Assembly (NCBI GenBank): GCA_905178155.1
Contig: CAJINV010000006.1
Coordinates: 688,398-752,397 of the forward strand
Reading direction: 5' to 3'
Length of the DNA stretch: 64,000 bases
Source: Amoebophrya sp. A120
Lineage: Eukaryota > Protista > Dinoflagellata
Below, piece by piece: positions 1,166 to 24,100 of this stretch; within the stretch, counting starts at the first letter, position 1; each line of letters starts with the position of its first letter. A model generated the notes under the pieces. That model was not told where the DNA came from and did not search any database. It was given only the letters and a program-made list of their open reading frames with translations. The position numbers were made by a program, and so were the translations under genes.

Positions 1166-3154
1166 ATGGCGCACTATTCTTTCTTCCTCGTCTATCTCCT
1201 GCTGTTGCTTCAGGCACTGCATGCCCGAATTTTGCGTGGCGTGTTGAAGAAGCGAGCGCACACGGTACAGCAGCGGAAAGTGGTAGAGAAGCGACAACGA
1301 CGACGCGCAGCACGGGGTACAACTACTTCGGACGAAGACAATGGCGCTGTAACAACCTCTAGTAGTGCGGAAGATGATGATACTGGAGTTGAGAAAGAGG
1401 CAATTGGTGGTGCAAGATCGGAGAGAAGTAGGGCCACTTCCTCTAACACCCGCAAGTCCTCGTCCTTCCTCGGTAAACTCTTGTCCCGGAAGCAGAAGAC
1501 GCAAACACTAAAACTGCAGACGAAAAATTACAATGTGAACGAAGATACTTCATTGCCCTACGACGACGGGAAGAAACAAAAATCACGCAGCGCCGCAGCT
1601 ACCGGGCCTACAAGAGCCGCATCGTTTCTTGAGGAGAGAGAGGAGCAGCAGCATGAGCACAGGGCTGCTGCCTTGCACGAGCAGAAAGATGAGATTCGCG
1701 AGGATTTCGATACTCGGCGGTCGGTAGAAGGTCATCTGCAGTTTGGAGCGCGTGAAGATCTTCTGGACGTGGACACAGATAGCTTTCTGAACACGCAAGA
1801 AGAGACCACAGACGTTGGGGCGACGACGAGGATGCCCATTGCAGCCTCTACCCTAGCGGCCGACAGGAAGCTCCGGGAGAAGAAAACCAGTGTCGAGTTT
1901 CGTGCAGCGGACAGCGAGACTGATGATGATGACGATGATGATGTAGTTCAGCAGGAGCGCGGTGTGCCGGCGTCAGGAGCATCACCTTCTCTTCGCACAG
2001 CAACGGCATCTTCAAGAAAGAATCTCAGCGAGGACACGACAAGTCTGTTGGAACAAAACAAAGCCACCACGACCGCGTCGAAAATAGCAGAGACCAAAGC
2101 ACAACTAACCGTGACCCCGATCTATCTGAGCGAGCAAGAATCAATTGGAAAATCGATGCCCGGCCGCTGCCGGGCGAACACCGTGCAGTGGAGCACGTCT
2201 GCGGGGAGCACGATCGCGTGCTCCACGATTTGCGGCACTCGCCACGATGCTTACAGGTGCTTTTACCAGCCCCAGGGGAGGGAGTGTGAGTGCATCGACA
2301 AAGACGGTACTCACGCTCCGCTCTACGCGCGGCCATTAACCTACATTAACGCGCAGGAAGCGGCTCGGAAGACCGTGAAATGCACCGCGAAGAGCAAGCC
2401 CTCCAGCGTCGCGGTCACCTACGAAGACGTCGGAGCGGGCATGTGCGGCACGGAGAAGGGCCCGATCTTTGACTCCAGCTGGCGCGCGAAGCGGTTATGG
2501 CAGTGGGACGACCGGGAAGTACTACTACAGGGTCTGGCAACTCATGGGATAATGCAGTGGGACGGTTCTTCTCCTAGTCAACTGCCCGATGAGCACGTCG
2601 CGGCGGCGCGAAGCATGTGCGAACAAGCGTGCACGAACAGTGAGTGGCCGGAAACCTGGGCCGGGGCGGCGGCTTGGGGAAATTTAAACGGCCAGTTGTG
2701 GGCCGCGTGGCGCGAAAGCCACGTGATCGGGGAACCGTGCACGGGGTATAATTTCAAGAAATGGGGCACCTGTTTGATTTTCGTGAGAACGATCCCGACC
2801 AAGGGCATGGGGACGGAGCAGCCCGGTCCGGGTTGGGACGATAATGAAATCTGGTCTAGCCTGAGCTCGACCTCCGCGAAACAAGACCTGTTAGCCGACG
2901 TGCACTCCTGGGCCGCGCAGCCGAATATCTGGCCGCCAAGCCCCTGCATGCGGAAGCACACCACGGTGACGCCCGGCGACGAAACGGCGGGCGGTAGCAT
3001 CAACGTGAACGGCGTCTCGATCTGGTGTTCGCTCATCTGTGCCGGCCCGCTCCGCAGTAACGCGTGGCAGTGCTTCTTCGAGACGAGGGGCCGCGCGTGC
3101 ACGTGCCGCGACGGGAACGGAGCTTTCGCGCCCGAGTACGCAAAGCCCGTCGTC
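1166..3154 (+). CDS. Exon 1 of giant gene: signal peptide, low-complexity pro-region, two related Cys modules flanking a PAN-like module
   Basis: ORF 1166..3298 reads into the first introner at 3155. It contains CSTICG..RCFY..RECEC.D.DG..AP.YARP and CSLICAG..QCFF..RACTC.DG.G..AP.YAKP. Confidence 0.85.
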
Positions 3155-6100
3155 TATGAATGTGTCAGGATCGAAATCGACAAAATCGAAATGATTTGTC
3201 ATGCAAAAAACGGATTCCAGTTCGAAGTCGAACCCAGTTTCTTATTGGCGCATGACAAATTCTGGTGGTGCCTAAATCCAGTTTGTGACGCTGTTTAGCC
3301 AAAAAAGACTGATTCTCTCATGCTGCTTCAGCAGCTCGACCTATATAACCCCAAGCAGGCTTTTTACAATCGGCCTCACTTGCCTGCTCTGCAACACACG
3401 TATTTCGCGTCATGCATTTTATGCATCACAAGTTTTTCGATTTTGCCAATTTCGATTCTGACACTTCCATATCGTCCAGCCGCCACCTCCACCACTAAGC
3501 ACGCCGGCCCTGCTATCCTGAGTAAAAACGTCCCCACACCAGAGTTGTCATGCAGATTTGCCATGACAGGAACATTTGTGATGCGCAACCCCATGACAGG
3601 CATTTCCAATCGTGTTTGGGAACTTGTAATGCTGTAAACAGGATCAGCAGATCGATTTGTGATGCGGCTTTCCTTGCTAACTTGCACTACCTCACGGACT
3701 GAAACTTGTCATGCGTGACTCACAAAACTCCTAGGTTTGTGTTGCAAAATCCCCATCCTGACTCAGGTGTGGGTACGTTTTTACTCAGGATACCTGCCCC
3801 CGTCGAGCGGGATTTCCTGTGTGGGCGTCCCGGTTGAGTCAGATCTTCCCCTATCCAGGTGCAGCGCGGAACCCTTCGGGGCCGCGCCGACCTACGCCTT
3901 CCGAGGTCCGGCCCAGAAACCAGATTTCGCCGGGTTGTTCGCCCTGCTCGGGCGGGGAAGTAGCAGGTACAACCACCCCTGGGTACGGTTCACGCATTTC
4001 CGCCTAGAGGCAGCGGGCGGGCACGCGATCGCGAGGGCGGACTGGGATAACTTTTGGCGGGACAATATCCTGAGCAAAAATCTCTCCACCCCATAGTCCT
4101 CAACTGGGGAATTCTGCTAGACAAATCTACGAACTTAGGGTGTTGCGCATGACAACTTTGGCCTCGTAGTGAAATGCTGTTTAGCTCGCTCCGAAGCATC
4201 ACAAATCTAGCCCACTATGCTGATTGGAGCATTACAAATTCCAAAACACGACTAGGAATTGCTTCTCAGCATGGGTCTCCGCATGAGAAACATTTTGAGC
4301 CTGCGTTTTTGCATTACAAGCATGGGGTGGGGACGTGTTTACACAGGATAGACAAAACCGCGCGGCTCCACGACGCCAGCACGTTCGACGCAGCGGTCGC
4401 AAAGTCTTGCGGGGAAGTTTCCGAAACGCTTTGCGAGGCCGCTGACGTGCTGTTTCAGCTGCTGCAGGCGCGGCCCCGGACCAACCCGGATAGGGCGCGG
4501 GCGGTAAACCCTCACTGGGCAAGCTGGCTCACCACCGGCGACATCGATTATCTATCCGGCCCCAACCGGGACTGCAACCAGGAGGTCCTGACCAACTTTG
4601 AATGGGCGACGGTGGCCAAATATCCTGTGCAAAAGTATCCGATACTAGTATAAATTGCAACACCAATAATTCACTTGGCATTACAGATTAGATTTGCAAT
4701 GTTGCGGATCTGCCTTAATGTAAAGAGATTTGTAATGCATAAACGCAATCAGTATCAGAGTACGATACTTTTGCAATGCATACCAAAGACCAGGCGTGGG
4801 ACAACTCAGTGGCGCTGCACCACGTGAAGAAGGTCGATTGTGAGCCACGCTTTGTGAACAACTGGTGCAGGGTGGCGGAAAGTTTGCTGGGAACCGACGT
4901 TCTAGTCCTCCCCGAGGTAGAGAAGATGTGGGCGGAGTACGAGACTTTCCGGGAGGGAAACGGCTGCATCCGGGCGCTAGCTCGCGCCGAAACGGAGGGC
5001 GGTCCGGTCCCGCTACGAACGGAGACAACGAGCAGCACCCCGGTGCCGGCGGTGCCGGTTCCGAACCCCATGAACTGGGAGGACCGCATTCAGCCGACCG
5101 TGTTTAACAACTTACTCGACCCCGCGCAGCCGGACAGTCTCTTGTTGGAGGAACAGTTTACCCGGACGGAAAAAACTATGAAAGTGTCAGGATCGAAATC
5201 AACAAAATCGAAATAATCTGTGATGCATAAAACCGATACCAGTTGGAGCCTCAGTTTCCAAGTGGCGCATGACAAATTTCGGGAGCCCGGAAGTCGCGTC
5301 TGTCATGCTGTTTGGGCAAAGAAGGCTGCTCCTGTCATGCTACTCTGGCATCACATCTCCTTCCCCTGAACAGGCTGGCAAGCGGTCTCATTTGCTTGCT
5401 TCCCAACACAGGCCCTACGCGCCCTGCATTTTATGCATTACAAGTTTTTCGATTTTGTCGATTTCGATCCTGACAATCCCATAAAAACCTTGAAGAATAT
5501 CCGCGACGTTGTGCAGTCGGAAGTCGTACCGCAGTGCGAGGTATCAAATGCAAATATCCCTGGATGTCTGGAAGAACGCAACTTGTGATGCTGCGTTTGG
5601 ATTCCAAAAAAAATCTGTATTGCGTGAGCAGTAAAGGGAATGCAATTTTTGCAACGCGGAGTAGAGGGAATTTGTCATGCGGATTAGGCATTAAGAAGGC
5701 CTCAAAAAATCTGTGATGCTAGGAAATGCATCACAGACATCATGGCTCATGCAAAACGTGCATGACAAGGCTCAGAATCTTCCAGACCCAGACTTATTCG
5801 CAATGCATACGAGGCCTTGAAGGATAACACGCAGTTTGCCGTGACCAACTCCCTATCCTGTGCAAAAGTATCGTACTCGTATTGCCGTCATGCATTACAA
5901 ATCTTTTTCTTGAGGTAGTTCAGCATAACAAATTTTATTTCTCATGCTGAGGAAATTTGTAATGCATTTATAGTACGAGTGCGATACTTTTGCAATGCAT
6001 ACTTCCTCGCGCTAGGGCTCGCGGTGACGCCGAAATGCGACGGGTGCGAACCGCGACTGAACGAGTGTTGGGGGCAGTGCGGGCTGGAGGGCAAGCCAGG

Positions 6101-9100
6101 TAACGCGAACCGAGGCGGGTGGTGTAGTATTTGCGATCCGGTGCACAACCCCTACAACCTGAGAGGCGCCTGTTGCAAGTTTGAATTTACGGAGAATATC
6201 AACTGTAAAAATGTCTGGGTCTGGAAGATTGGAACTTGTGATGCTAACTTCGGACTGTAAAAAAATCTGTATTGCATGACCAGCAAGAGGAGTCTAGTTT
6301 GTGCTACGCGGGGAGGGCGTTTGTCATGCGCAGTAGGCATCGGGCAGCCCTCTCAAAATCTGTGATGCGCGGTCGTGCATTACAGACATCCTGGGTCATG
6401 CAAAACATGCATGACAAATCTCAGAATCTTCCAGACCCAGACATTTTTACATTTCATAGAGAACGGCGGCAAGCAAGGCGACGAATGCGGGCGGGTATCG
6501 CAAGAAAAAAGTGTTACAGTTACACACATAGTCTATGCAGGCCAAGCAAGACAGACCAGCTCTGTAATGCCGGATACGCATAGAAGCCTCGTTCTTTCAT
6601 AGGTGTTTTCCCGTAGGATTTCTGCATTACAAGTTTTCTCTCTCATGCTGAGAAATTTGTGTTGCTGAATTGACTACAAATGTGTAACTGGAACACTTTT
6701 TTCCTGGGATAGCGGGTTGAGGTCGAGCAGTACGTGTCGCGGCACAAACCCTACGAGGAGCGGTATCCTGAGTAAAAACGTCCCCACCCCAGATTTGTGA
6801 TGCAGTTTTGCAATGACAGGAATCGATTTGTGATGCGCATCCCCATGGTAGGCATTTTCAATCGTGGTTTGGAATTTGTAATGCTGTAAACAGGATCAGT
6901 AGATGGATTTGTAATGCGGCTGTTCCAGCATTGCTAAGTAACCTTTGCATTACACTACGGACTGCAACTACCAAATTGTCATGCGTGACTGCCAAAGTTT
7001 CTGGATTTGTGTTGCGAGCGCCCCAGCTTGCCTCTGGGGCGTGGGCCCCGTTTTTACACAGGAGAACCGGTGGCACGAGTGCGTGATTCCGGATCTGAGC
7101 CTCCGAAAATTCCACGAACAAATCTTCCCCCTGCGCCCGGTGCGGGGTATTCTCGGGATCCCGAAGTGCCGGATGTGCGGGGAGCGGGTGCGCGAGTGCT
7201 GGGACGCCTGCAACCGCATCAGCGGCTACTGCGACGCATGCAATTCCGTGGACTACCTCACCGGCTTCAAGTTGCGGGGCGCGTGCTGCCGACTGGACGA
7301 CGCCAGCGATGCAGCCGAGTGCAAAAACGAGGTCGACACGGAACAATATTTCACGGGGGCGTCGTATGGAGCCGTCAGGTTTGAAATCGTCAAAGTTGAA
7401 ATACTTTGTCATGCAGAAAATGGATGCCAGTTGGACCCCAGTTTCCAAGTGGCGCATGACAAATTTTGGCTGTGCCTAAATCCCGTTTGTAATGCTGTTT
7501 AGGTACAGAAGACTGATTCTCTCATGCTACTTCTGCAGTTCGAGCTCTAACCCCAAACAGGCTTACAATCGGCCTCACTTGCCTGCTCTGCAGCACACGT
7601 ATTCCGCGTCATGCATTTTACGCATGACAAATCATTTCAACTTTGACGATTTCGATCCTGACGCTTCCATACGTCGGTTCCGACGGAGGCGCGGCGGCAC
7701 GAGTGCGTGATCCCCAAGTTGCAGGCCCAGTGGCCGTATGCATTGCAAATTCGTCTGGGTCTGGAAGGATGCGAACTTGTAATGCTGGTCTCGCAAAAAT
7801 CCAGTTTAATCTGTATTGCATGTTGATCAACAAGAAAAGTCGCAGTGCCTCTTTGGTCACACAGAAACGCAGTTTCTCATGCGAGCTGCGTATGGGAGAG
7901 CGTTCTGGGAACAAGTTGTCATGCTTCCCTGCATCCGAAAGTGTAGTTTCCATCATCCACACTTCAGCATCACAAGTTTCCAGACCCGGGCGTATTTGCA
8001 ATGCATAGGCCGGAGTGGAAACGAAAACTGATCGACGCGTCGACCGCCAACGCCGCGGGGTCGAACGTGCATATGAGAGTGCACACCCCCCCCTCCCCTC
8101 ATTTGTCATGCAAAAAGCCAATTCCACGTCCTGCGTTGCAGCACTGTCTGCATGACAAATTTTGGAACCTCAGTGAGTACTGCAGATTATTTGTCATGCA
8201 GAAGGCCCATATCTGCCATTGCTTGTGTTGCTGCTCAGGCACTTCAAATGAAAGGACGGGCGGTCGTGCACTGTGATAGTGCACCGAGATCTGCGCCACA
8301 CGCTGCTGCAGCCCGCGTGGCCGCAGAATGTGATCCACGTCGACACCGATTACGTCAGCCAGCAGATTGGGCTATCAAGTGTAAAAATGTCTGGGTCTGG
8401 AACTTTGCTAGACTTGTCATGCAGGTTTTCCATGACCCATATAATCTGTAATGGAGGACCTAGCATGACAGATTCCGTGAGATCAATATCATGCCTATCC
8501 TGCATGAGAAAGTGCCTCTCAACTTGATCAAAAGTGGCCAGCATTTGCAAATCATGCAACACAGATTTTTGCATGATTCAGATTTAGCATGACAAGTTCC
8601 AACCTTCCAGACGGAGACATTTTTGCAATCCATACGGGCCGCACCGCTACTACGAAAACACGGGTGGGACGGTCGAGACCTGGGACATGTTCATGCTCGA
8701 CGAGAATCACTGGAAGCTTACGAACATGAAAAACCGGGTTTTCGCCGACTGCATGAAAGAGAAGGTTGCGGACCTGCTTCTGGCGAACGCGAACAGCAAC
8801 GTGCATGGGTGGAGCGGCATGGTACAGATGCACCCCGCTGTGAACGGGGACGTGCCGGGAATTAAAACCGAACCAGTCGAACCGTTCACGGAGGATAGGT
8901 TATTCTACTCCGGACCGGCGAGGCTGACCATCCCAGCCACCTACTACCCGACCAACCCGCGGTGCAAAGTGTGGCGGCGGCAAGAGGGGATTCGCTTTGA
9001 CCTGGGCGAGATTTGCGTCGTTGACACGACCGAGACATCTCCATCTAGCTCTGGGATCGCCCACGCGGTTCCCGCTGAAAATTTTGACGCCGCGCTGAAA

Positions 9101-12100
9101 ATTTTGGACCCGCCGCGCAACCGCGATGATGATGCACCGCTGCATCGCAGGTGCAAAGAGGCGCTGGTATACATGAATGATTGGCTGGTGCGAACGGAAG
9201 TGCCTTCGGCCCAGGAACTCCGCGGGAACGGGAACGACCGGCTGCCGGCGTTCAGCAAGCGGCAACTGGCGCAGGACACCTCGGTGGACGCGATTTTTCC
9301 GGGGGAGTACCTGGATTTGGCTGCATTGGGTAGTAGTGCCAGCCGTGCGGAGTGGCTCGAGACGGTAAACAACGACCGGATGGCGGTCGATGTGCCGGAG
9401 GAGGAGTGGAAATGCTTATCCATTGCAAAGGTAGCGTACTAGTTGTCGGAAACGCATTACAAATTTGCAGCTCAGCATGAGAAATCAAATTTGTAATGCG
9501 AATTTAGCTCAAGAAATTGATTTGTAATGCAAAAATGCAATTACTACGAGCACGATGCTTTTGCAGTGCATAATGCAAACTGATTTGCGACTCCATGGAC
9601 GACTGTGTGGGCTACTGGCTGTACCGGCGAGCCGATTCGGACGGAAAATGCCACCTCTTCGGCAACCGCGTCCGCTCGTTAATTCCTTTCCACAACGCCT
9701 GGACGTCTGTTTGCGTATAACCCGCTCAGGTGTTACAATCTCAGGCGTTACACTAGAGTCTGAGATTTGTCTTCCATGATGAGCATGACAGGCTCGCAGA
9801 GCGTTCCACTTTCTGCAATACAAATTTCGCCAGATTGTACTGGGGTTTGGGGCTCCGGAAGAACTTGTCATGCGCAATCCTATGAGATTTGGCTGGAGCA
9901 TGCACTTCTTGCATCACACATTTCCAGACTATATTGTAGCGTTTGAGATTGTAACACTTGAACGGGCTATATTGCGAAGACCGATTTTTCGCTTTGCCGG
10001 ATGGGTTGAAGATCATGAAAGACCCCCGGTTATGCATTGCAAATCCGTCTGGGTCTGGTTGGACGACCGCAAGATTTGTCAAGCAGGTTTTCCATGACCC
10101 ATGAGGTCTGGAATGCAGCACCTAGCATGACAAATCCTGTGAGATGATCTTCCCTCTCACCTATCATGCCTACCCTGCATGAGAAAATCCCTCTCAACTT
10201 GGTAAAAACGGGGGGCTGTTATGGTAAGCATGCAAAAGAGATTTTTTGCACGATTCAGATTTAGCATGACAAACTTGCACTCCTCCAGACCCCGACATTT
10301 ATTTGCGTTTGATACCGGTACAGCAACTCCTCGGGCCCGTACTACCTCCACGCGCTGCCGTATGGATCGAAATTGAGAAAATCGAAAAATTTGTGATGCA
10401 TAAAATGTAGGACACTGAAGGCCTGTATTGGGGAGCAGGCAAATGAGACCGATTGTAAGCCTGTTTAGTGGTATGCGATGTGCTGCCAGAGTAGCATGAC
10501 AGGAGCAGTCTTCTATGCCCAAACAGCATGACAGGCTGGATTTGGGTGCTCCCGAAATTTGTCATGCGCCGCTTGCAAACCGAGGCTCCAACTGGTATCG
10601 ATGTTATGCATCACAGGTTTTTCGATTTTGTCAATTGCGATCCTGACACTCCCATATGCCGCACCTCACGAAGAAGCCGCGCACCGCGGCAGAGGTGGCC
10701 GCCGCGGCCGAGGCGCGGGCGGTGGCCAGTCCGTACGACCCCAACAGCAACGATGCGGGGGCGGAAAAGCAGCCCTACCCCACCACGCCGTCGGTGGTCG
10801 GGTATGCGACCTTTGCACTGGAGGATACGGGAGACTTCATTCAGTGGCCCGCGCTGGAATACAGCATATCTATTGCAAAAGCATCGTAAGCTAGTAGTGA
10901 TTGCAATACAAATTTAGCTCAGCATGACAAACGGAATTTGTCATGCTGATTTAGCTCGGGAAAGAGATTTGTATTGCATGACTGCTATGAAAGCTTTTGG
11001 ACAGGATACAGCAACGCGAACTACCTGAAGCCGCATGAGGACGCGCGGTCGTCGGCCTGGTACGTGCGCTATGGATTGCAAACATGTCGGGGTCTACTTG
11101 AAGGATGCAAGGTTTGTCATGCTCGTCTGGCATGACTGAAGAGTTTGTGATGCGTGTCCAAGAAGAAAGTCTTTTGCTTGTCATGCAAAAACGGAGTTTG
11201 TCATGCGGAAAGCGCAACTACACGTAGGCACGCAAATTATTTCTCATGCTTGTCTGCGCATTACAGACAGCATTCACTACTTATTCACAACTCAGCATCT
11301 TCACAAGTTCCCAGACATTTGCAGTTGATATGCGCACCGCCACGGCAGGGTTGAAAAAGAACATCGTGATCGCGGTGGATTACTCGGTATCAAATGTAAA
11401 AATGTCTGGGTCTGGAAGAATCCAACTTGTCATGCTGATTTTGGATTCTAAAAAAATCTGTATTGCGTGAGCAGCAAAGAGAGTCCAAGTTTTGCTACAC
11501 GGAAAGAGCATTTGTCATGCGGTATAGGCATCAGGAAGCCCCCACAAAATCTGTGATGCTAGGGCATGCATCACAGACATCAGGAGTCATGCAAAATGTG
11601 CATGACAAAGACAAACCTGGCAATCTTCCAGACCCAGACATTTTTACATTTGATACTCGGGTTCGATGCGATCCGACGGCAAGTGGGATGCGGCCAAATA
11701 TCAAACGGAAAAATCCCCCTTCCACACGTCAAAACGAAGTTTCTGATGCTGGATTTCCCTACACAAATCAGAGCTGTCTTGCAGTAGAGGACTGCAGGCA
11801 TATGCCGTGCCTGAGTTGTACAGAGCTTGTGACGTGGACGCTTAGCATCACAAATGTCTGCGCTTTAAAGCCCAAGCAGCATGAGAAACCGTCCGCATAA
11901 TGCGGCGGAGACTGTAGAGTCGGCTTCTTGCAAGACAAAAAGATTTGTGGTCACAAATCAGCATTAGAACTTGTGCCTTTTTGACATGGGGAAGAGGGAT
12001 TTTTCATTTTGATACCAAAGAGGCTGTCTACATCGTGCTGGACTCGTTAACCGAGGGGGACCGGTTTAACCTCTTTCTCTGGAACGGGTACGTGCAATTG

Positions 12101-15100
12101 TCGTCCTTCGAGCTGTTGCCGGCCTACCCAGAGCTGATCAAGCGCGTGAAAACCTGGCTGGCCAACATTCCGTTTCCGTGGGCGACAACGCCCGACAGAT
12201 CTGGCTGGTGGACGAACATCGAATCCGCGCTGTCCTTTGGCCTCACGCTGGCGACTATCAAATGTAAAAATGTCTGGGTCTGGAAGATTGCCAGGTTTGT
12301 CATGCACATTTTGCATGACTCCGGATGTCTGTGATGCATGCCCTAGCATCGCAGATTTTGTGAGGGCTTCCTGATGCTTATACCGCATGACAAATGCTCT
12401 TTCTGTGTAGCAAAACTTGGACTCTCTTTGCTGTTCATGCAATACAGATTTTTTTAGAATCCAAAATCAGCATGACAAGTTGGATTCTTCCAGACCCAGA
12501 CATTTATACAGTTGATAGCGACGCTCGGCGTATTGCCTGCCGAAATTCGGAACACGTACGCGGACCCTAGCAAGTCGTGGAGCATGAATCGCTGGTCAGA
12601 CTCTTCCAAGAAATTGAAAGACTCGCCGTACGTCGGCGGGGAATTTGAAAACAACCCAGAGTACACATGGCAAATATCCCTGGACGTCTGGAAGATTTAT
12701 TCCAGATTTGTCATGCTTGTCTGACATGACTCGGAACTCTTGTAACATGCGTCGGTGCATCAAAAAGATCGTTTTGTCTGTGATACAAAAGCGCAGTCTT
12801 CCATGCGGAATAAGTACGCTACACAGAGCAGCTCAAAAACTTGTCATGCTTGGCCACGTATAATGACAGTGCGCCCAGCATAATTCCCTGGTTTGCATCA
12901 CAAGTTTCCAGACCCAGATCGATGTTTGCCTTTGATACGGAGCAGCCGTCGCCAGAATTCGAATGTTTGCAGGCCAACGATTTCTGCAGCGCGCGCTATT
13001 CTGAGTAAAACCGTCCCCACCCGAGAGGTGTCATGCAAATCTGCATGCTGAAAATGTTTCTCATGCGGAGCCCCATGAGATGCATTGTGTAGTCGTGTTT
13101 TGGAATTTGTCATGCTCCAATCAGAATGATATCCTAGATCTGTGATGCTGCTTAGTTAGCTCCAACAGCACTACACTACGAGTCCAAATTGGTCATGCAA
13201 AACAGCCGAAGCTTGGAGATTTGTCTAGCCGATTCTCCATCTTGACTATGGGGTGGGGGCGTTTTTACATGGGATACGCGGCTACTGTTACTCACCGACG
13301 CGGAAGAGGAGTGGACGGAGTCGCAGCAGTATCACATGCAAAAATGTCTGGGTCAGGGAGGATGGAGCTTGTCATGCTAAATCTGAACCAGGCAAAAAAC
13401 TGTGTTGCATGGTTGCCACAAGTTGTGCACTTTTGACCTAATCGAGAGGCAGTTTCTCATGCAGGAAAGGCATTAGAAAGGTCTCGCAGAATCTGTCATG
13501 CTATGTCCTACATACCAGACCTCATGGGGCATGGAAAACTTGCGTGACAAATCTGACGATCTTCCAGACCCAGACATTTCTGCAATCCATAAGCAGAACA
13601 AATTTAAAGACGAGTATTTCCTGAAGCAATGGGGCACCAAAATGTCGGTGTACATTTTGAAGGCCGCGACCAATGAAGACCCACCTTATGCTATCCTGAG
13701 CAAAAACGTACCCACACCAGAGTCAAGATGGTAAATCTGCTAGACAAATCAACCAGCTTTGGCTGTTTCGCATGACAAGTTTGTCCTTGTAATGTAATCC
13801 TGTTTAGGTAGTTCAGCAGCATCACAGGTCTAGCATATCATGCTGATTATAGCATCGCAAATCCCAAAACACGATTAGAATATGCCTTTCATGGGGCTCA
13901 GCATGAGAAACTTTTTTGGCATGCAGATTTGCATTACAACTCTGGTGTGGGTACGTTTTTACTCAGGATATATGCTCCCTTTTTTGACGAGGTAACCGCG
14001 GACTACGGTGGGAAGGTGCTGTATGGATGTGTCAGGTTTGAAACCGTCAGAGTTGAAATAGTTTGTCATGCATAAAATGGATGCCAGTTGGAGCCCAGTT
14101 TTCAAGTGGCGCATGACAAGTTTTGGTGGTGCCTAAATCCAGTTTGTAATGCTGTTTGGGTAAGGAAGACGCCTTTTGTCATGCTACTTTAGCAGCTCTA
14201 TTTCTACCCCTCAACAGGCTTGCAATATGCCTCCCTTGCCTACTCTGCAAGACAGGCGCTTTGCGGGTTGCATTTTATGCATCACAAATTATTTCAACTT
14301 TGACGATTTCAATCCTGACGCTTCCATATGCTGCTCATGAACAGCGGCGAGCCGGATCAGATCAAATCGCAACTGGCCAACTACTATCAAGTGCAAATAA
14401 ATATGTCTGGGTCTGGCAGCCTGTAAACCTCTCATGCAGGAGGTTTTCCATGACCCATGAGGTCTGGAATGCGGGACCTAGCATGACAGACTCTGCGACG
14501 TCTGTGTCATGCCTTTCCTGCGTGAGAAATTCTTTCCCAAAGGTGGACAGCTTTTGGCACTCATGCAACACAGATCTTTGCATGATTCAGATGTAGCATG
14601 ACAAGTTGCACTGTCCCAGACCCAGATCGATATTTGCAATTGATAACTACTGGCGGCAGTTGGAGGGCGAGATCCTGGCGGAAGAGCGGGACTTAGATCG
14701 CCCCGTGTGGACGAAGCACAGCTGGGACCGGCTGGTGACCACTGACGAGACGCAGCAAGACTTCAAACTCGTGCACCCACCCGTGCAAAAACTCTCCGCC
14801 TGTCTATCCTGAGTAAAAACGTCCCCACACCAGAGTTGTCATGCAGATATTTGCAATGACAGGAACATTTGTAATGCGCATCGCCAGGAGAGGAATTTTT
14901 AGTCGTGTTTTGGAATTTGTAATGCTGTAAACAGGATGAGCAGATGGATTTCTGATGCAGCTGGCCTTGCGAACCTGCACTACACTACGGACTGCAACTT
15001 GTGATGCGTGACCCCCAAAAGTTCTAGGTTTGTGTTGCAAAATCCCCATCTTGACTCTGGTGTGGGGATGTTTTTACTCAGGATACTGTCTGCCGGTCAC

Positions 15101-18100
15101 CTATTCCCCCCCGTCGGCAGCGAGGTTGGGCGTGCTGTGCCTGGACCTCTCTTTGTTCTCCGGTAGCACCAACACCGCCCCGCGGTACTACCCGCTGCTC
15201 CGTTGCTGGCCGGGGTTCAACCAGATTTTGGCGCGGCGCACGGACGCCGACATGCTGGAGAAGGCGTGCCCGGCCCGGGAATTCAAGGCGGACCGGTGCA
15301 ACACCGAAAGGCCGCTCATGTACAAGTATTGGGGGAAGAAGGACGGGTATCAAAAGGAAAAATCCGCCCTCCCCATATCGAAAACAAAATTTGTGATGCT
15401 GTATTTGAGTACACAAATCAGGTTTGTATTGCAGAGAGGCATTGCGGCCAGATCCCCAGGCTAGCTGGGGGCGTATGGTTCTAGTTGCGCAGCATGGCAA
15501 GCGGCTCCCTTTTAGGCCTCACAGCATGAAAAATCGCTTCCATAATGGGGCGGAAGCTTCTGCCCTTGTCTTCTTGCAAGACAAATGTGATTTGTGACCT
15601 CAAATCAGCAACACAAATTTCCGGAAACGTACCTGTTCGATATGGGGAGGGGGGATTTTTCTCTTTGATAACGGGGGCAACCACCGGCGGCGCAGCGCAC
15701 GCCGCCGCCGCCGTCGTACGCCGTCGTCGGACAAGTGGCTGCGCGAAACGGACTATGAATTGCAAATATGTCTGGGTCTGGAAGAATGCAAGTTTGTCAT
15801 GCTTGTCTGGCACGACTCGAGAATCTGTGTTGCATAGGCACGAAACGGCACTCTTACCTGTCATGCAAAAACGCAGTTTGCCATGCGGAATACCTAACAC
15901 ATGGCAGCCAAAAAATTTGTCATGCATAGCTGCGTATTGCAGTGCGTCTAGCATTCCTTTTTAGCATTACAAGTTTCCAGACCCAGACATACTTATTTGC
16001 AATCCATACGGACGTGACCGGTTGCTTGGACAGCTTGGACGACTCCACTTATCCCAAGGAGGTCGCGGTCCCCGACACCGACGAGAATTCCAACGTGCAC
16101 AAGGTGCGGCCCTGCTTTCCGGACTACTACTTGTATGAATTGCAAAAATGTCTGGGTCTGGAAGATTGCAACTTGTCATGGCAAATCTGAAGCATGCAAA
16201 AATCTGTGTTGCATGAGTGCCAAAAGCTGTCCACTTTGGACCAAGTTGGAACGGAGTTTCTCATGCAGAATAGGCATGGCAGAGACCTCGCAGCGTCTGT
16301 CATGCTAAGTCCCGCATTGTTCCAGACCTCATGGGTCATGGAAACTGTGCATGACAGGTCTACACTCTTCCAGACCCAGACATTTTTACATTTGATAACT
16401 TGGCAAAGAGCACGATGGACACGCTCGTAGTCCCCGATAGTGGCCAGCTCACGGCGGCGTCGAGCGGGGGGTCGAGTACTTCCCCTTCCGGGGAGGCGGT
16501 GCCGGAGAAGTTTTCGGCGGACTTATCAAAAGGAAAAATCCCCCCTCCCCATATCGAAGTGGAAATCTGTGATGCGGGATTTGTGTACACAAATCGGCTT
16601 TGTCTTGCAGTAGAGGACTGCAGGCAGATGCAAAGCCGGAGTAGGGGCATTTTGGTGTAGGCGCCTAGCAAAGCAGGCATATCCTCCGTGAGCCATATAG
16701 CATTACAAATTGCCTGCAGGACGCGGCGAGGTTTTTGCATTTGCCTTCTTGCAAAACAGAGACGATTTGTGGTCTCAAATCAGCATGACAAATTTTCAAA
16801 AGTATACCGGTTTGGTATGGGGAGGGGGGATTTTTCCTCACAATAGGACTACGACGCGGAGCAGCAGCGAGCCTGCCCGGTGAATTGCGTGATGAATCTA
16901 TCAGAATGAAAAATCCCCCTTCCCCATATCAAAACGAAGTTTCTGATGCTGGATTTGCGTACACAAATCAGATTTGTCATGCTGGCGAGGACTGCAGGCC
17001 GATATCAAGCCTGAAAAGACAGGTTTTGGCCTAGGCGCTTAGCATGACAGAGGTCTACGCTTTAGGAGCATGAGCATGACAAACCGCCTGTAGAATGCGG
17101 CGGTTGTCTGTGGGGTTGCCTTCGTGCAACATAGAGATGATTTGTGGCCACAAATCAGCAACACAAATTTTCGAAAACGTACCTTTTCGATATGGGGAGG
17201 GGGGATTTTTCCTTTTGATAGAACCCCTGGACCGCCTGGTCTGCCTGCTCCTTGTCCTGCGGAACCGGGGAGCAGAGCCGCACCCGGACCATTGCCCTGC
17301 ACCCGATGTTCAACGGCCAGGCGTGTGACGCCGTGGCCGAGATATGGAATGCAAATATCGATCTGGGTCTGGAAACTTGTGATGCTGAATTGCACATGAC
17401 TGCAACGCCGGCAGCGGCAGCCCAGCATGACAAACTTTCGGAACGCTTTTTGCTGCGTGACGCGCATGACAAATTGCCTGTAATGTATTTTGCATAACAA
17501 AAAAAGCTGCTCATTTGCTGCTCATGCAACACAGATTTTCCAGGAAAGCAAGATACGCATTACAAGTTGTTACAACCTTCCAGACCCAGACATATTTGCA
17601 AGGCATACGAGATCCAGAACTGCAACGAGCAGCCCTGTCCCGTGGACTGCGATTTTAGCGAGTGGTCGGAGTGGACTGATTATGCATTGCAAATATGTCT
17701 GGGTCGGGAAACCTGTAATGCTGGGCTGGGTATAGTGAATGCTCTGTAATGCACAGCCAAGCATGACAAGTATTTCCGCCGATTAGTGTTGCCGTTTCCG
17801 CATGACAAACTGCGTTTTTGCATGACAAGCCGAAGAGTGTCTCGTCTTGGACACGCATCACAAACTCTTCAGTCATGCCAAACAAGCATGACAATCCTTG
17901 CATCCTTCCAGACCCGGACATATTTGCAATTGATACCGATTGCACCGTCTCTTGTGGTCCCCCCGCGGGAATCCGCACCCGAACGATTACCATTAACAGC
18001 GGGTCGCTGAACGGCGGAGCGGCGTACCCTGAGTAAAAACGTACCCACACCAGAGTTGTAATGCAAATCTGCATGCCAAAAGAGTTTCTCATGTTGAGCC

Positions 18101-21100
18101 CCATGAAAGGCATTTTCTAATCGTGTTTTGGGATTTGTGATGCTATAATCAGCATGATATGCTAGGCCTGTGATGCTGCTGAACTACCTAAACAGGATTA
18201 CATTACAAGGACAAACTTGTCATGCGAAACAGCCAAAGCTGGTTGATTTGTCTAGCAGATTTACCATCTTGACTCCGGTGTGGGTACGTTTTTACTTAGG
18301 ATACGGCGTGTCCTTTGAGTACCCAAGAAACGAAAGCGTGTCATGATGGCAATACCTATCAAATACAAAAATGTCTGGTGTTTTGTCTGGACGAAACAAG
18401 ACCTTGGTACAGCACGGGGAAGAGAACGACTTGAACTTTTTGAAGAAAGAAAATAAAAGAGAACTACGTGGATGCACTATGTAGAGAGAGAGATTAAAAC
18501 ATGCTATTATGTCCACCGGTAGAACTAACTACTACTACTTATACTATCACTTGCGCAACATACAAATCGGGTGCAATGAACTTCTGCCCACGGGGTCCCG
18601 CAGGCTCTACCAAAGTGCTACGCTGGCCAAAGCGCTAGGCACCTGGGAGCCCGTGGGTGCTCGCGTAGTATGTAGTGAGGTCACCGAACGGTTCTAACCG
18701 GGGAGTTTTCTTGCCATGCATCGCGCAAAACGACCGGCAGTTTTCAAGCGGGCGGAAGTGTTTTTTGACAAAAAAGATTTTCAATTATAAAGCGGCTTTG
18801 GCTGTGTCGGCACCGAATCGCCAGCGGATTCTATCGATCGCCGCTGGGTAAAACGACGCAGAGGAGCCAGCAAAAGGAGCGCCATTCTGAGGCGCCCACC
18901 GCCTTAGTTTCTGGCGGTTTGGGGCGCCCAAAAAGGGGCGCGAAAAAAACGCGCCTAAAATCAGAACAGCGAAACAGCACGGCACGGCCGCGATTTCGGA
19001 GCATTTTGGGCGGCAGCGAAAGCGGCCGAATTTTCGCCGGTTTCAGAGCCTGGGAAGCTTTGCAAAAAGCGCCGGCGCGAAAAATAAAAACGCAAAAAAG
19101 CAAAAGCGCGCCAGACGCGCAAAGCCAACCCGCATGCTACGGGCCCGATTTCCCTTCGCTTTTTGGGCGCCCCCAGTGGCACCCGGATCGGCCCCATAGC
19201 ATGGGGGCTGGCTTTCGGAAAGGAATATCGGGAATTTGCAAAAATTTGCGACGTTTACAAAGCGGCCGCCATACCGTGCGGCCTAACGTTACTCACGACG
19301 GTATGGCGAACCCAGGAAAAGCACAGCCGCGGCCAAAGCGACGGCCGGCAAGAAAACGCCCACGACCTCACTACCTCCGCCCCGGCGGCTATATTTGGTA
19401 GTGTCATGGCCGTGCGAATAGCACACCGTGGGTGCGTGCGAATAGCACACCGTGGGTGCAAAAATGTCTGGGTCGGGAAGATTCTGACACTTGTCATGCA
19501 CGTTTTGCATGAGCCCTGATGTTTGTGATGCATGCCCTAGCATCACAGATTTTTTGAGAGCTTCTTGATGCCTATTCCGCGTTACAAATGCCCTCTCCGC
19601 GTAGCAAAAATTACATTCCCTTATTTGGTCCTCATGCAATACAGATTTTTCTGGAATCCAAATGCAGCATCACAAGTTGCATTCTTCCAGACCCAGACAC
19701 TTTTGCATTTGATAAGCTGGAGAAGTGCACGCCGCCCGAGGGCCCCAACAAGCCGAATGCCGTCTACCTGCTGCTATCCTGTGCAAAAGTATCGTATTCG
19801 TATAATAAATGCAAGTCTTGCATTACAAAAAGGTAAATCACCATTACAAATTCCATTTCTCATGCTGAGAAAATTTGTAATGCATTTATAATTATACGAG
19901 TACGACTACGATACTTTTGCAGTTCATAGCTGCCGACGGGCAGTTATTTGGAAGGGGCGACGGTGGGGAAGGCCGACCGAGACGATCCCCACGTGAACTG
20001 CACAAGCCCCACCTCTACCGACCCCGGTTGTGCGGACCCCCCGTCAACGGGGACGCTCTCCGTGTGGCCGGCAAAGCTGGCCGGGGAAGCGTGGAAGAAA
20101 GTGTTCGAGGACGCGGCGCAGGATCCTCTCGACCCGTACCACCCCGGCAACGTGGTGTACCTTGTGTCCCCCCTCCGGCGCGCCATGGAGGCGGCCGCCA
20201 ACTTCATCATTTCGGCACGGTCTACAAAGACACCGCCTCGAGTGGGGGGCTCCTGGGGGTAATCTCCCACGGCTATCTGAACGGAGAAGGCAGCAAGTCC
20301 TTGGCGGAAAATTTTCCCGAAATTTTTTTGGTGCCGCAACTACGGGAGGCCGGTCTGCGCCCGCCGCGGCCGCGTGCCAACGAGGGCACGCGCGTGGGGA
20401 GATGGAAGGACATGGTGAAGTATTGGCCCCTTCTATCCTGAGTAAAAAGGTACCCACACCAGAGTCAGGATGGGGATTTTGCAACACAAACCTAGGAGTT
20501 TTGTGAGTCACGCATGACAAGTTGCACTCTGCAGTGTAGTGCAGGTTAGCAAGTGCAGCCGCATCGCAGATTCATCTGCTGCTCATCCTGTTCACAGCAT
20601 CACAAATTCCAAAACACGATCGGAAGTGGCTCTCATGGGGATGCGCATTACAAGTCTTCCTGTCTTTGCAAATCTGCATTACAACTCTGGTGTGGGTACG
20701 TTTTTACTCAGGAAACTTTCGGTTGTTGAGCCCCACATTTACGCTGTGGGAGCTGACCGACGGACCGACGGACGCGGAACGACACCAGGCACTATCAAGT
20801 GTAAAAATGCCTGGGTCTGGAAACTTGTGATGCTGTGTGGCGTCTCATGATGAGGCCACAAGTGCTGGCTCAGCATGACAAGTTTCTGAGCTTCTAGGTA
20901 TTGCCTATTCTGCATGACAAACTGCGTCTCTGCATCACAGAAAAATGAAGCTCTTGGGTAACGTGCATGACAGATTTAAAAGTCATGCCAGACAAGCATG
21001 ACAAACATGCAGCATTCTTCCAGATCCAGACATCCTTACACTTGATAGGCACTGAGTGACTACAACCTGGACGAAAGTGCGAAGCTTGTCAAGTGGCTTG

Positions 21101-24100
21101 ACGAAGAAAAGTATGGTGCCGACTACTGGGACCACCACCTGCAAGACGTGCCGGAAGACAAGCAGTACTTTGAAACCTGGTACCGTAACACCCTCATGTC
21201 GGGCCACGGCCCGGCGGCGCTCAAGGACAAGGTGGTGATTCTGGTGACCGGACTCGACCTAGCCAACATGGCGTTTGAATTGTTCGCTGCCGACGGCGTC
21301 GCCAAGTGGGACCTGCAGTCACGTCTGGTTCCGCAGAGCGCTGCTGGAAACGGGCAATGGTGGAGCGAGTTGAGCGGGATGTACAGCGGGAGCATCCTGA
21401 CCCCCTTTCGCGCCGACGACCCAACTACGTGTTCAACAACGGACGGCCACGCCGCAGCAGGCCAGTGCGGCCGCACTGCCCGCGCCCTGTGGGAACTGAT
21501 AGAGCAGGGCCCCAAGACGCCGCTGCGAGACGAGCGTCCGACCCACGAGGATTGGTTCGGGGCGGCCAATACGCAGCCTCTACTCTCCGAGGCAGAAACC
21601 GTGACGCCTCCCGGGAGACCACCCGGCGCCACGTGGCCCGTCAACTGCGAGCTCGAGCAGGGGTATGACGGTGGATGGAGCCCCTGCAGCTGCGCGGACG
21701 GTGTTGCGGCGGAAAAGACCCAGCACCGAATCAGGTGGGTTGAGCGGGAGAATGCGACTCGGTGGGCCGGCAGCTTTTACGAGGAGCTGGGGTGGTACAA
21801 GTTGCAGGTCTATCAACTGTAAAAATGTCTGGGTCTGGAAGATTCCAGGATTTGTGATGCATATTTTGTATGATCCGTGATGCATGTAATGCATGATCTA
21901 GCATCACAGATTTTTAGAGGGCTTTCTGATGCCCATTCTGCATGAGAAATGCCCTCTCCGCGTAACACAAACTGGACTCCTGTTGCTGGTCACGCAATAC
22001 AGATTTCTTTGGAATCCAAAGACAGCATGACAAGTTTAGAATCTTCCAGACCCAGACACTTTTACATTTGATAAGGTCGGTGGGGTGGTGCAACCGCCGG
22101 TAGAGGCCACCTGCGAGGGCCGTTTCCCGTATCAAAAGGAAAAATCCCCCCTCCCCATATCAAAAAGGAAATTTGTGATGCTGATTTGTGACCACAAATC
22201 AGCTTTGTATTGCAGAGAGGCACTGCGGCCAGATCCCCAGGCTAGGTAGGGGCGTATGGGTCTAGTAGTTCAGCATGGCAAGCGCCCCCCTTTAGGCCCA
22301 ACAGCATGACAAACCGCTTCGATAATGGGGCGGAAGCTTCTGTCCTTGTCTTCTTGCAAGACAGACATGATTTGTGACCTCAAATCCGCAACACAAATTT
22401 TTGGAAACATACCTTTTCAAAATGGGGAGGGGGGATTTTTCCTCTCAATATCCCGGGTTTGAAGTTCTTGATGGGTACCGACGAGGACGGGAAGAGACGA
22501 CGCTACTCGCAGGAAACGAAGACCTGTCCCGGAACCTCGTGCGAGAAAAAAGCACACTGTTATGAATTGCAAAAAAGTCTGCGTCTGAAAGATTGCAACT
22601 TGTCATGGAAAATCTGAAGCATGCAAAAATCTGTGTTGCATGAGTGCCAAAAGCTGAAAACTTTTGACCAAGTCGGAACTGAGTTTCTCATGCAGGATAG
22701 GCATGGCAGAGACCTCGCAGAGTCTGTCATGCTAAGTCCCGCATTCCAGACCTCATGGGTCTTCAGGGAAAATCTGCATGACAAGGCAACACTTTTCCAG
22801 ACCCAGACATTCTGCTCCCAGGTGCCCAGCGCTTTGGCCAGCGTAGCACCTTGGTAGAGCCTGCGGGACCCCGTGGGCAGAAGTTCACTGCACCCAATTT
22901 GTATGTTGCGCAATAGTAGCTTATCGTAGTATAGTGGACGCAATAGCATGTATTTATTTTAGTTCTCTCTACCTGAATCTACGTCGTTTTCGTTTTTTAC
23001 TTTTCAAAATTTCAAGTCGTTCTCTTCCCTGTGCTGTACCACGGTCTTGTTTCCAGACAAAACGCCAGACATTCTCGCACTTGATAATACCGACGGTGAT
23101 ACGATTCGTTGCCCCATCGACTGCGTGATGCACCCCTGGGGGGCGTTCTATCAACTGCAAATATTCCTGGGTCTGGAGAGGATGGGATTTGTGTTGCTAA
23201 CTTTCGATCATGTAAAAAGCTGTATTGCATAAGCCGCACAAGGTGCTCAGATTTTTGCAACGCAGAGGGCATTTCTCGTGCAGGATACGCATGAGCAACC
23301 CTTCGCGAAAGGGAAAGCTGTGATGCTAGACAATGCATGATCTCCGGACTCGCTGGTCCTGTACATGTACAATCTGCATGACAAAGTTCCCCTTCCAGAC
23401 ATCCAGACATATGTGCATTTGATACGTTCACGGCCTGCTCGAAAACGTGCGGCCCGGACGGGACGAAAACGCAAACGCGGAGTGTGCAGGTTCATCCGGA
23501 ATTCGGGGGCGAAGAGTGTCCGAAGATCGCTGCAAACGAGAACGGCGAACAAACGGGCGGGGGTGTAGTACTTCTCCAGCTCAAGGAATCTTCCGGATTT
23601 GTCGACATCGAAGAAGGAATGTTGGACGGTACTTACGCTGAAAACGAGTGGGACAAGTATGGCCCGAACGACCAGGACCCGTTTCTGGGGCCCTTCCCCG
23701 CGGCGCTGCAGAAGGTGATGCACGAGGAGTTCGGCACGGAGAATCCGACCGACGCCGTATCAAAAGGAAAAATCCCCCCTCCCCATATCGAAAAGGTATG
23801 TTTCCGAAAATTTGTGTTGCTGATTTGAGGTCACAAATCGCATTTGTCTTGCAAGGAGACAAGGGCAGAAGCTTGCGCCCCATTATGGAAGCGATTTGTC
23901 ACGCTGTTGGGCCTAAAGGGGAGCCGTTTGCCATGCTGAGCAACTAGTAGGCCCCTACCTAGCTGGGCACCTGGCCGCAGTGCTTCTCTGCAATACAAAC
24001 CTGATCTGTGTACTCAAATACAGCAACACAGATTCCGTTTTCGATATGGGGAGGGGGGATTTTTCCTTCTGATACGCCGAGACGGAGCTGTTTGTCCCGA

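Follow-up and report, generated by a model that had tools for sequence, protein, structure and literature searches.

The genome of Amoebophrya sp. A120 contains non-canonical introns by the tens of thousands, which have so far been described in print as a large number of unrelated families. To our knowledge, neither the enzyme that mobilises these introns nor the machinery that removes them is known. The locus analysed here, a stretch of 64,000 nt on contig CAJINV010000006.1 referred to as the window, raises the question of what purpose is served by a short internal word, TGTVATGC, that recurs in introns of different families. An earlier note on this DNA had taken the word for a shared recognition code, read either by a transposase on DNA or as stems or protein sites on RNA. 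Our analysis supports a shared code, of which the transposase-site branch fits best, but not the RNA-stem branch.

Introners and their host gene

The elements are introners with TAT...ATA inverted repeats (TIRs) and 5-bp target site duplications (TSDs). The features on which this section draws are the following:

3155..63219, no strand assigned: 113 catalogued small introners carrying the motif, 142-324 nt long, about 14 families
1166..59325, plus strand: host gene with an open reading frame of 8,248 aa, each removed element taken with one 5-nt TSD copy
18357..23086, no strand assigned: TAT...ATA insertion of 4.73 kb, TSD ATACC, with arms of ~295 nt that are 81% identical

The families have the terminal consensus TAT(C/G)NNN(T)G(C/T)AAA in common; among 224 ends, T, A and T are found in 100%, 98% and 99%, and A at positions 11-13 in 85-93%. 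Perfect 5-bp TSDs flank 83 of 112 elements; the element search presumed this length, and when 4, 5 and 6 bp were compared, duplications of 4 or 6 bp were present in none of the 112. The GC content of the TSDs (60%) is close to that of the exons (58%). Removal of 108 TIR elements and one GT-AG intron restores the single frame of the host gene, in which the exon tested contains TSP1/spondin and PAN domains. Raw RNA reads on 3000-18400 and 44200-64000 matched only other copies of the elements, with no exon-exon joint among the matches listed, and are uninformative on expression and splicing.

Short, with TIRs, a fixed TSD, many copies and no transposase ORF, the introners fit the description of MITEs or non-autonomous TIR transposons. 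According to the accessible text of Farhat et al., an A120 introner is defined by an inverted repeat that starts with TAT, followed by seven variable nucleotides and at least three A (PMC7789003). As far as the available portions of the two published accounts extend, the window elements agree with these introners in the TAT repeat, the A-run, the short direct repeats and the non-canonical borders (PMC7789003; PMC12130899), and the family lengths of about 106, 149, 209, 252-260, 278, 305 and 320 nt match rows in the accessible part of the published A120 dataset. The direct repeat is resolved here as an exact 5-bp TSD outside TAT...ATA. Covariation of the TIR arms is clear in 2 of 8 families and borderline in 1, and the TIR pattern had no match in viral contigs. 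The 4.73-kb insertion, whose cargo is a piece of a host-like gene with nested introners, has the same ends and TSD length as the small elements and no motif site in either arm, a counter-example that argues against a strict need for the motif in transposition.

Abundance, conservation and spacing of the motif

The motif is real in the window, where TGTVATGC has 379 strict matches compared with 8.75 ± 3.0 in shuffled sequences. Inside the 112 delimited elements lie 363 of them; the other 16, assigned to places by reading the sequence, comprise six in two truncated elements, two in a degenerate element (40989-41161), four in a GT-AG intron, three in a relic at 6-162 and just one in a true exon (position 62010). 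In its extended form the motif has 12 nt, RYYTGTVWTGCD, and 470 of 471 elements contain one or more such sites in their interior. The 12-nt matrix finds 608 sites in 28,911 nt of elements and 8 in 26,519 nt of exon, a contrast that is partly circular since the matrix was trained on the window's own elements. However, it also holds on 358 held-out elements from another assembly, among which are five multi-copy families, and one further family, that have no member in the window. The motif is thus rare in exons and carried across families, as the earlier note had claimed. No description of it was found in print. It may resemble the sites of ApiAP2 (TGCATGCA), RBFOX (GCAUG) and SKN-1 (WWTRTCAT), but the variable fourth base fits them poorly.

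Agreement with the family consensus reaches 0.94 in the motif-core columns, 0.89 in the terminal 30 nt and 0.76 in the other interior columns, and in each of the 10 families with at least 8 members the core scores above the interior. The families were said to be largely different; this applies to the interiors, most of which cannot be aligned from end to end (partial relatedness is seen in the 262/253-nt and 322/311-nt pairs), but the TIRs, with their common end consensus, share more than that. Homology of the families throughout, with a motif kept no better than its flanks, can be set aside because the core is better conserved than the flanks in all ten families and the interiors mostly do not align. 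The element terminus as a copy of the motif was rejected as a general rule, 13% of ends scoring above 5. Likewise rejected was the motif as a general intron signal, as it is absent from 54 of 73 intron-like segments.

The fixed helical spacing of the motif is a new piece of anatomy, which the earlier note had missed: its "tens of nucleotides apart" was correct in scale, but the spacing is set, with doublets of 31-33 bp, about three turns of DNA, and first sites at distances that step by whole turns from the end. Among adjacent same-direction gaps in 15 family consensuses, 24 of 50 measure 31-33 bp, and 26 pairs with this distance compare with 5.0 expected and a maximum of 15 in 5,000 random layouts. 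Such doublets are present in 17 of 18 families and often hold a weak inverted site in between. Between families the doublet spacers are 36% identical, compared with 30% after shuffling, and 4 of 263 pairs reach 63%; therefore, the spacing is kept while the sequence is not. The doublet length did not vary significantly less than other intervals (p=0.07). At 26 family ends with an inward-pointing first site, this site lies at 36-39 bp in 11, at 45-49 bp in 12 and at 57-60 bp in 3, and at none at 40-44 or 50-56 bp. These distances have a period of about 10.5 bp (R=0.81, p=0.0002; R=0.13-0.21 at 16-17 bp), unchanged with the 18 ends left after related families were dropped. Outward first sites gave no phasing (8 ends, p=0.34).

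Direction is less regular. The elements used as examples are these:

5542..5809, no strand assigned: introner of the 262-nt family, TSD CGAGG, TAT...ATA ends, convergent layout; sites 5584>, 5616>, 5673>, 5712>, 5728<, 5760<, with doublets 5584/5616 and 5728/5760, each 32 apart
5854..6001, no strand assigned: introner of the 150-nt family, divergent layout; sites 5892<, 5940> (weak), 5958>
6197..6458, no strand assigned: introner of the 262-nt family, TSD GAGAA; sites 6237>, 6268>, 6322>, 6361>, 6377<, 6409<, with doublets 31 and 32 apart
3514..3792, no strand assigned: introner of the 280-nt family, TSD CCTGC; the centres of six sites, all in the same direction, lie 37, 68, 116, 149, 198 and 229 nt from the left end

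When the outermost sites of each element are compared, the layout is convergent in 290 of 471 elements, tandem in 108 and divergent in 69, and 4 have fewer than two sites; the 113 window elements divide into 70, 27 and 16, respectively. By family, 8 of 15 are convergent, 4 tandem and 3 divergent, so that the convergent arrangement put forward earlier is not a general rule, and the interval chosen to illustrate it includes the divergent element 5854-6001, with GCATTACA at 5892 and TGTAATGC at 5958. Elements do sit both ways round, as had been proposed; the symmetry to which this was ascribed is not the source, because tandem families do so as well. The all-tandem 280-nt family, with its six same-direction sites, is found 10 times in sense and 11 times in antisense (4066-4350, for example, is reversed). 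The copy at 3514..3792 has an extra inverted site at 80.

Candidate readings of the motif

The families have their end, their TSD length and a helically phased internal word in common, which argues for a single machine acting at the level of DNA, and the motif probably provides double-stranded-DNA binding sites for a transposase, or its partner, shared by all families. Like subterminal repeats, the sites are short, repeated, conserved above their flanks and placed at fixed distances from one another and from the element end. Several copies of the protein would line up along a single face of the helix, in phase with protein on the element end, and would contribute to assembly of the machinery for cutting out and reinserting the element. 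The end together with at least one phased doublet would then be enough to mobilise an otherwise unrelated interior, the 109-nt family perhaps being the smallest case, and removal of the intron from RNA would rely on the paired ends, not on the motif.

Private core changes amount to 2.0, 3.7 and 4.0% in young, middle and old window copies, and TSD mismatches to 4.0, 6.9 and 7.6%. The core rate is thus half the TSD rate, the ratio predicted for a core that decays without constraint once inserted; these TSD-clock tests are weak, with all intervals including zero, and leave room for up to twofold protection. At low power, copies with mismatched and perfect TSDs did not differ in the core. A Pfam scan of the 140 longest of 415 ORFs of the locus and 10 further ORFs gave no transposase or integrase domain, and the available part of Farhat et al. 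reports no transposase in A120 (PMC7789003).

Doublets survive in GT-AG introns without TIRs, which speaks against the transposase reading and makes a host mark the main rival. Here, a DNA-binding protein of the host, which might be a domesticated transposase domain, would sit on the phased doublets and recruit the removal machinery of non-canonical introns during transcription, and introners would have spread because they carry the mark. We consider this unlikely. One such intron illustrates the case:

39169..39764, plus strand: intron with GT-AG borders and neither TIR nor TSD recognisable; it contains six motif sites, among them a doublet spaced by 32 nt with an inverted site in between (39529>, 39542<, 39561>)

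Of 32 same-direction pairs outside family-like sequence, 9 have a spacing of 30-35 nt, and for 8 of these the end scores are at background level; several lie inside GT-AG introns (L054, L069, L060 and L032) that leave an open frame when removed, and in such intron-like segments the motif is oriented both ways (11:11). Among GT-AG introns predicted blind to the motif, 10 of 51 contain a strong site compared with 2.5% of shuffles, but 41 of 51 contain none, and their doublets (1 of 51 by strict, 3 of 51 by relaxed scoring) are near the ceiling for neutral relics (1.5% and 3.5%). A host mark would also be consistent with the correlation of site number with element length (r=0.59), although motif-free inserts of 350-650 nt are tolerated inside some elements. 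A GT-AG or GC-AG reading is possible in just 8 of 112 elements, whichever TSD register is taken, although removal of every element keeps the frame, and U1 snRNA was not detected in A120 according to the accessible text of PMC7789003. Against the mark, the core is kept equally in 13 non-coding or nested copies and 198 coding copies, although the cases are few, and phasing to the element end is explained less simply than by a transpososome.

A role as a splicing mark is conceivable provided that the mark is read on DNA. It is doubtful, though worth stating, that non-canonical introns of Amoebophrya are defined on DNA, with a protein on phased doublets in either orientation, perhaps a domesticated transposase, directing the exact removal of the element and one target-site copy from nascent RNA without GT-AG signals or U1; the mark would then persist in some former introners turned GT-AG introns without inverted ends. 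If the binder were indeed a host protein needed for removal, this definition of introns on DNA would be a real surprise. The motif offers a defined bait for protein capture, a duplex with two sites 32 bp apart, which makes the questions of both mobilisation and removal testable.

A role of the motif in RNA, where it would define the intron by forming local stems or by offering single-stranded sites to a protein, appears very improbable. In several families the interior folds better than its shuffled versions do (z -2.4 to -4.6), two families lean in orientation (209-nt, 13:2, p=0.007; 253-nt, 19:6, p=0.015; both uncorrected among 13), and the 11-nt period of A-form RNA fits the end distances about as well as 10.5 bp (R 0.79-0.80). 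However, the 280-nt family with its six same-direction sites in both orientations means that stems between motifs cannot be general. Its site-to-site pairing is 0.07-0.15 (0.07 to 0.62 across families) and its folding weak (z -0.65 and -1.26), and the 109-nt family has two sites in total, in the same direction. Furthermore, 33 convergent site pairs gave no covariation (mean z -0.45), strict sites are balanced (193 plus, 170 minus) and Rfam yielded 0 matches.

Least credible of all is the descent of every family from one ancient 32-bp repeat array with the motif as a functionless remnant: spacers with a weak inverted half-site still present and a similarity slightly above chance, and a 16-17-nt lattice in the gaps (between blocks, a 17-nt period fits better than 10.5, 0.53 vs 0.43), favour it, but it is largely refuted by core columns far better kept than their neighbours in ten of ten families, with simulated doublets falling to about 1-2% at 20% added decay and 10-bp steps to the end that are not multiples of 16 or 32. 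Common ancestry may account for the origin of the motif, not for its retention.

Comparison with known systems

Judged only from the end type and a published note, the enzyme may by analogy be an integrase-like DDE transposase near IS3EU, GingerRoot and IS481EU. The note, in the accessible part of Gozashti et al., describes A120 family 38 as "Ginger, 5-bp TSD, TA/TA termini" with LTR-like ORFs (PMC12130899). The window elements have the TA...TA termini of IS3EU/GingerRoot and the TNT..AYA termini of IS481EU, and share the absence of a target sequence preference; GingerRoot, with TIRs of 100-150 bp and captured gene fragments, can be compared with the 4.73-kb insertion (PMC6839031; PMC10045372). 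However, TSDs are mostly 6 bp in GingerRoot/IS3EU and about 4, 15 or 25 bp in IS481EU, as opposed to 5 bp here, and the word "subterminal" is absent from the main text of both papers (PMC6839031; PMC10045372). Ginger2/TDD shares the 5-bp TSD (TDD-4 and TDD-5) and the integrase-like enzyme that has been proposed for A120 family 38, but Ginger termini are TGTNR (TGT at 1 of 224 ends here) and Ginger2 prefers AT-rich targets, in contrast to the 60% GC of the TSDs here (PMC2836005).

Neither the internal motif common to the families nor its spacing rule is described in the available portions of Farhat et al. (2021) and Gozashti et al. (2025) (PMC7789003; PMC12130899). The nonconventional introns of euglenids share ends paired by TIRs, TSD-like repeats, non-canonical junctions and an unknown removal machinery, but a repeated, phased internal motif is not described in the accessible text (PMC11282704). 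The available parts of the literature on IS21 (with Mu and Tn7) and Emigrant describe several short repeats near the end, at set spacing and bound by the transposase (PMC10122671; PMC1636448): two direct repeats are required at each end of IS21, which produces duplications of 5 bp (PMC10122671), and Lemi1 binds subterminal repeats of the Emigrant MITE cooperatively (PMC1636448). IS21-type repeats abut the end in a fixed direction, 23 bp apart in IS21, as stated in the part of PMC10122671 available, whereas the introner sites start 36-60 bp in, are 31-33 bp apart and run through the whole element in either direction. Outward-pointing sites, found at one end or both in tandem and divergent families, set these elements apart from IS21, Mu and Tn7 and tell against the transposase reading.

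Host gene and its small insertions

One plus-strand gene (1166-59325) occupies most of the window and is interrupted by small elements, of which 112 were delimited by their paired ends and one more (40989-41161) by the reading frame. All start with TAT and end with ATA (deviant bases 9/678) and have the common end consensus TAT(C/G)NNN(T)G(C/T)AAA; their 5-bp flanking target-site duplication (TSD), which has no sequence preference, is perfect in 83/112, and 4-bp or 6-bp duplications were found in 0/112. A GT-AG or GC-AG reading is possible in only 8/112, whatever the register. When 108 elements with terminal inverted repeats (TIRs) are taken out together with one copy of the TSD at each, as well as a single GT-AG intron, one ORF of 8,248 aa with its own stop results, and since excision restores this ORF, we infer that the elements would be removed exactly, as introns. 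Among the RNA read matches listed for 3000-18400 and 44200-64000, none spans an exon-exon junction, and the raw RNA reads matched other copies of the elements only. In these features the elements agree with the Amoebophrya A120 introners of Farhat et al. (PMC7789003), as do the family lengths with rows of the Gozashti et al. Dataset (PMC12130899).

TSP1/spondin domains were detected in the tested exon of this gene. The encoded protein has an apparent signal peptide, a PAN domain, about 53 TSP1-like repeats, CP(I/V)(D/H/N)C, and a hydrophobic segment near 51510-51570, and resembles the microneme adhesins of apicomplexans, as a giant protein of the cell surface. Exons between insertions (3155-59045) are shorter than 30 nt in 2/107 cases (14 expected) and 30-70 nt long in 40/107 (16 expected), which suggests that exons have a lower size limit and that insertions cluster next to elements already present. 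The element at 9417-9572 has an imperfect TSD and a stop arises if the left copy is kept whole, so the 5' cut has to lie ahead of the final base of the TSD; the cut register could be mapped with such imperfect duplications. Different families draw on the same small set of 13-nt end variants (e.g. TATCAAATGCAAA, TATGCATTGCAAA), and the variant at one end of an element is nearly independent of that at the other, a hint of end exchange.

A shared word and its spacing

The core TGTVATGC of a word of about 12 bp, RYYTGTVWTGCD, has 379 matches in the window against 8.75 expected, 363 of them inside the 112 elements and one in an exon. A held-out set of 164 loci came from 11/64 parts of one other assembly and was fetched by a pattern of the TIRs found in the two most common families, for which it is enriched. 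It contained 358 elements (0 in shuffled controls); as the best copies share 79-97% identity with families of the window, this assembly probably belongs to the same species or a close one and does not represent an independent lineage. Together, 470/471 elements contain an interior site, including families missing from the window. Column conservation in ten families is 0.94 in the core, 0.89 in the terminal 30 nt and 0.76 in the remaining interior. The proposal of the earlier note that the families share a motif, rare in exons, is therefore borne out, and the motif is more conserved than the interior around it. Neither motif nor spacing was described in the literature searched, although subscription papers and further supplements could hold a description; together they make up a real and conserved cis-element architecture, apparently undescribed so far, in an already known introner class.

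The convergent arrangement, also proposed there, holds for 8/15 families, and in a count by element for 290/471, but not as a general rule: four families are tandem and three divergent, as are 108 and 69 single elements. Six sites run in the same direction in the 280-nt family and two in the 109-nt family, and those of the 150-nt family point outward. Insertion was 10 sense to 11 antisense in the 280-nt family and occurred both ways in 11/13 families, the other two (n=3 each) lying one way only and two leaning to one orientation (13:2 and 19:6, uncorrected); these counts exclude 224/358 locus elements of unassignable strand.

The rule for the sites is their spacing, by tests that were all picked after the site maps had been seen. 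Adjacent same-direction gaps measure 31-33 bp in 24/50 cases, and such doublets number 26 against 5.0 in random layouts and occur in 17/18 families; their spacers, with 36% likeness between families (30% shuffled), contain a weak inverted half-site. Inward first sites lie 36-39 bp (11 ends), 45-49 bp (12) or 57-60 bp (3) from the terminus, with none between these classes among the 26 ends. These distances are phased at 10.5 bp (R=0.81, p=0.0002), with the same outcome when only 18 ends of unrelated families are used; outward first sites show no phasing (p=0.34), and doublet intervals are less variable than others without significance (p=0.07). Gaps between doublet blocks are also phased at 10.5 (p=0.001, 40 gaps; p=0.009, 31 gaps) but add little, because 17 nt fits better.

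Candidate role in mobilisation

The rigid three-turn pairs, the whole-turn steps to the end and the strand indifference point to duplex DNA as the recognised form. The most likely reading, which we consider fairly probable, is that the word is a DNA site of the mobilising protein or a partner, of which several copies would bind on one helix face in register with the element end; any interior with an end and a phased doublet could then move. TSD copies are identical when inserted, so that their mismatch dates an element copy: in young, middle and old window copies, private core changes (2.0, 3.7, 4.0%) are half the TSD mismatch (4.0, 6.9, 7.6%), and the increase in older copies is about 1% whether in core, TIR or interior, every interval including zero. 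This fits selection during transposition only, and moderate protection after insertion may also be compatible. Deviation is lower in TAT/ATA than in TSD bases (1.3% vs 3.0%, p=0.025), a hint that the ends matter in removal.

Against this role, a Pfam scan of the 140 longest of 415 locus ORFs and ten others contained no transposase, and Farhat et al. report none in A120 (PMC7789003). Since TA...TA ends define IS3EU/GingerRoot and TNT..AYA ends IS481EU (PMC6839031, PMC10045372), and the annotation of A120 family 38 lists a 5-bp TSD, TA/TA termini and LTR-like ORFs (PMC12130899), our guess is an integrase-like enzyme. The elements were filed in none of these groups, because the TSD length (5 bp here) does not fit IS3EU/GingerRoot and IS481EU, and the termini do not fit Ginger (PMC2836005). 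Two kinds of sequence also speak against the role in mobilisation:

18357-23086: 4.73-kb TAT...ATA insertion with arms of about 295 nt, a perfect TSD and ends like those of the small elements
L054, L069, L082, L032, L060 (loci of the other assembly) and 39169-39764 (window): GT-AG introns with doublets and no TIR

The arms of the 4.73-kb insertion contain no motif sites, and it may be an assembly artefact. It resembles GingerRoot elements, which capture genes; it contains part of a host-like gene in which seven introners are nested, two of them truncated, and the host ORF stays in frame when the insertion is removed whole.

Sites without terminal repeats and other roles

Outside family-like sequence, 9/32 same-direction pairs are spaced 30-35 nt, eight of them with background end scores. 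In a motif-blind set of 51 predicted GT-AG introns, a strong site is present in ten (against 2.5% of shuffles), but doublets (1/51 strict, 3/51 relaxed) are near the simulated neutral-relic ceiling (1.5%, 3.5%). The doublets without TIRs may therefore be left over from families that are old or were not sampled, or they may be kept by the host, as a DNA mark for intron removal would have it; we regard such a mark as unlikely. The RNA stems between motifs suggested earlier found no support: predicted site-site pairing is only 0.07-0.15 for the 280-nt family and reaches 0.62 at most elsewhere, covariation is absent from 33 convergent site pairs, and Rfam gave no match. The two element ends are paired in every predicted fold (0.71-0.90), and an 11-nt RNA helix period matches the end distances about as well as 10.5, yet an RNA-level role appears very improbable. 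That the motif is a functionless remnant is hardly credible; a dual role or other causes take the remaining probability.

The GT-AG introns of L054, L060 and L082 (109-113 nt) have the size and two-site layout of the 109-nt introner family, with neither TIR nor sequence similarity to it, and are possibly ex-introners turned canonical. The window intron contains a 122-nt direct duplication (39434-39705, 90% identical). The introners at L024 505-1608, L033 632-1465 and L069 3862-4492, the last of them in frame within a gene that we take to be acyl-CoA-oxidase-like, contain foreign sequence of about 350-800 nt without the motif. Among the introner-bearing loci, L021 (2-2083) contains a C-5 cytosine DNA methylase gene.
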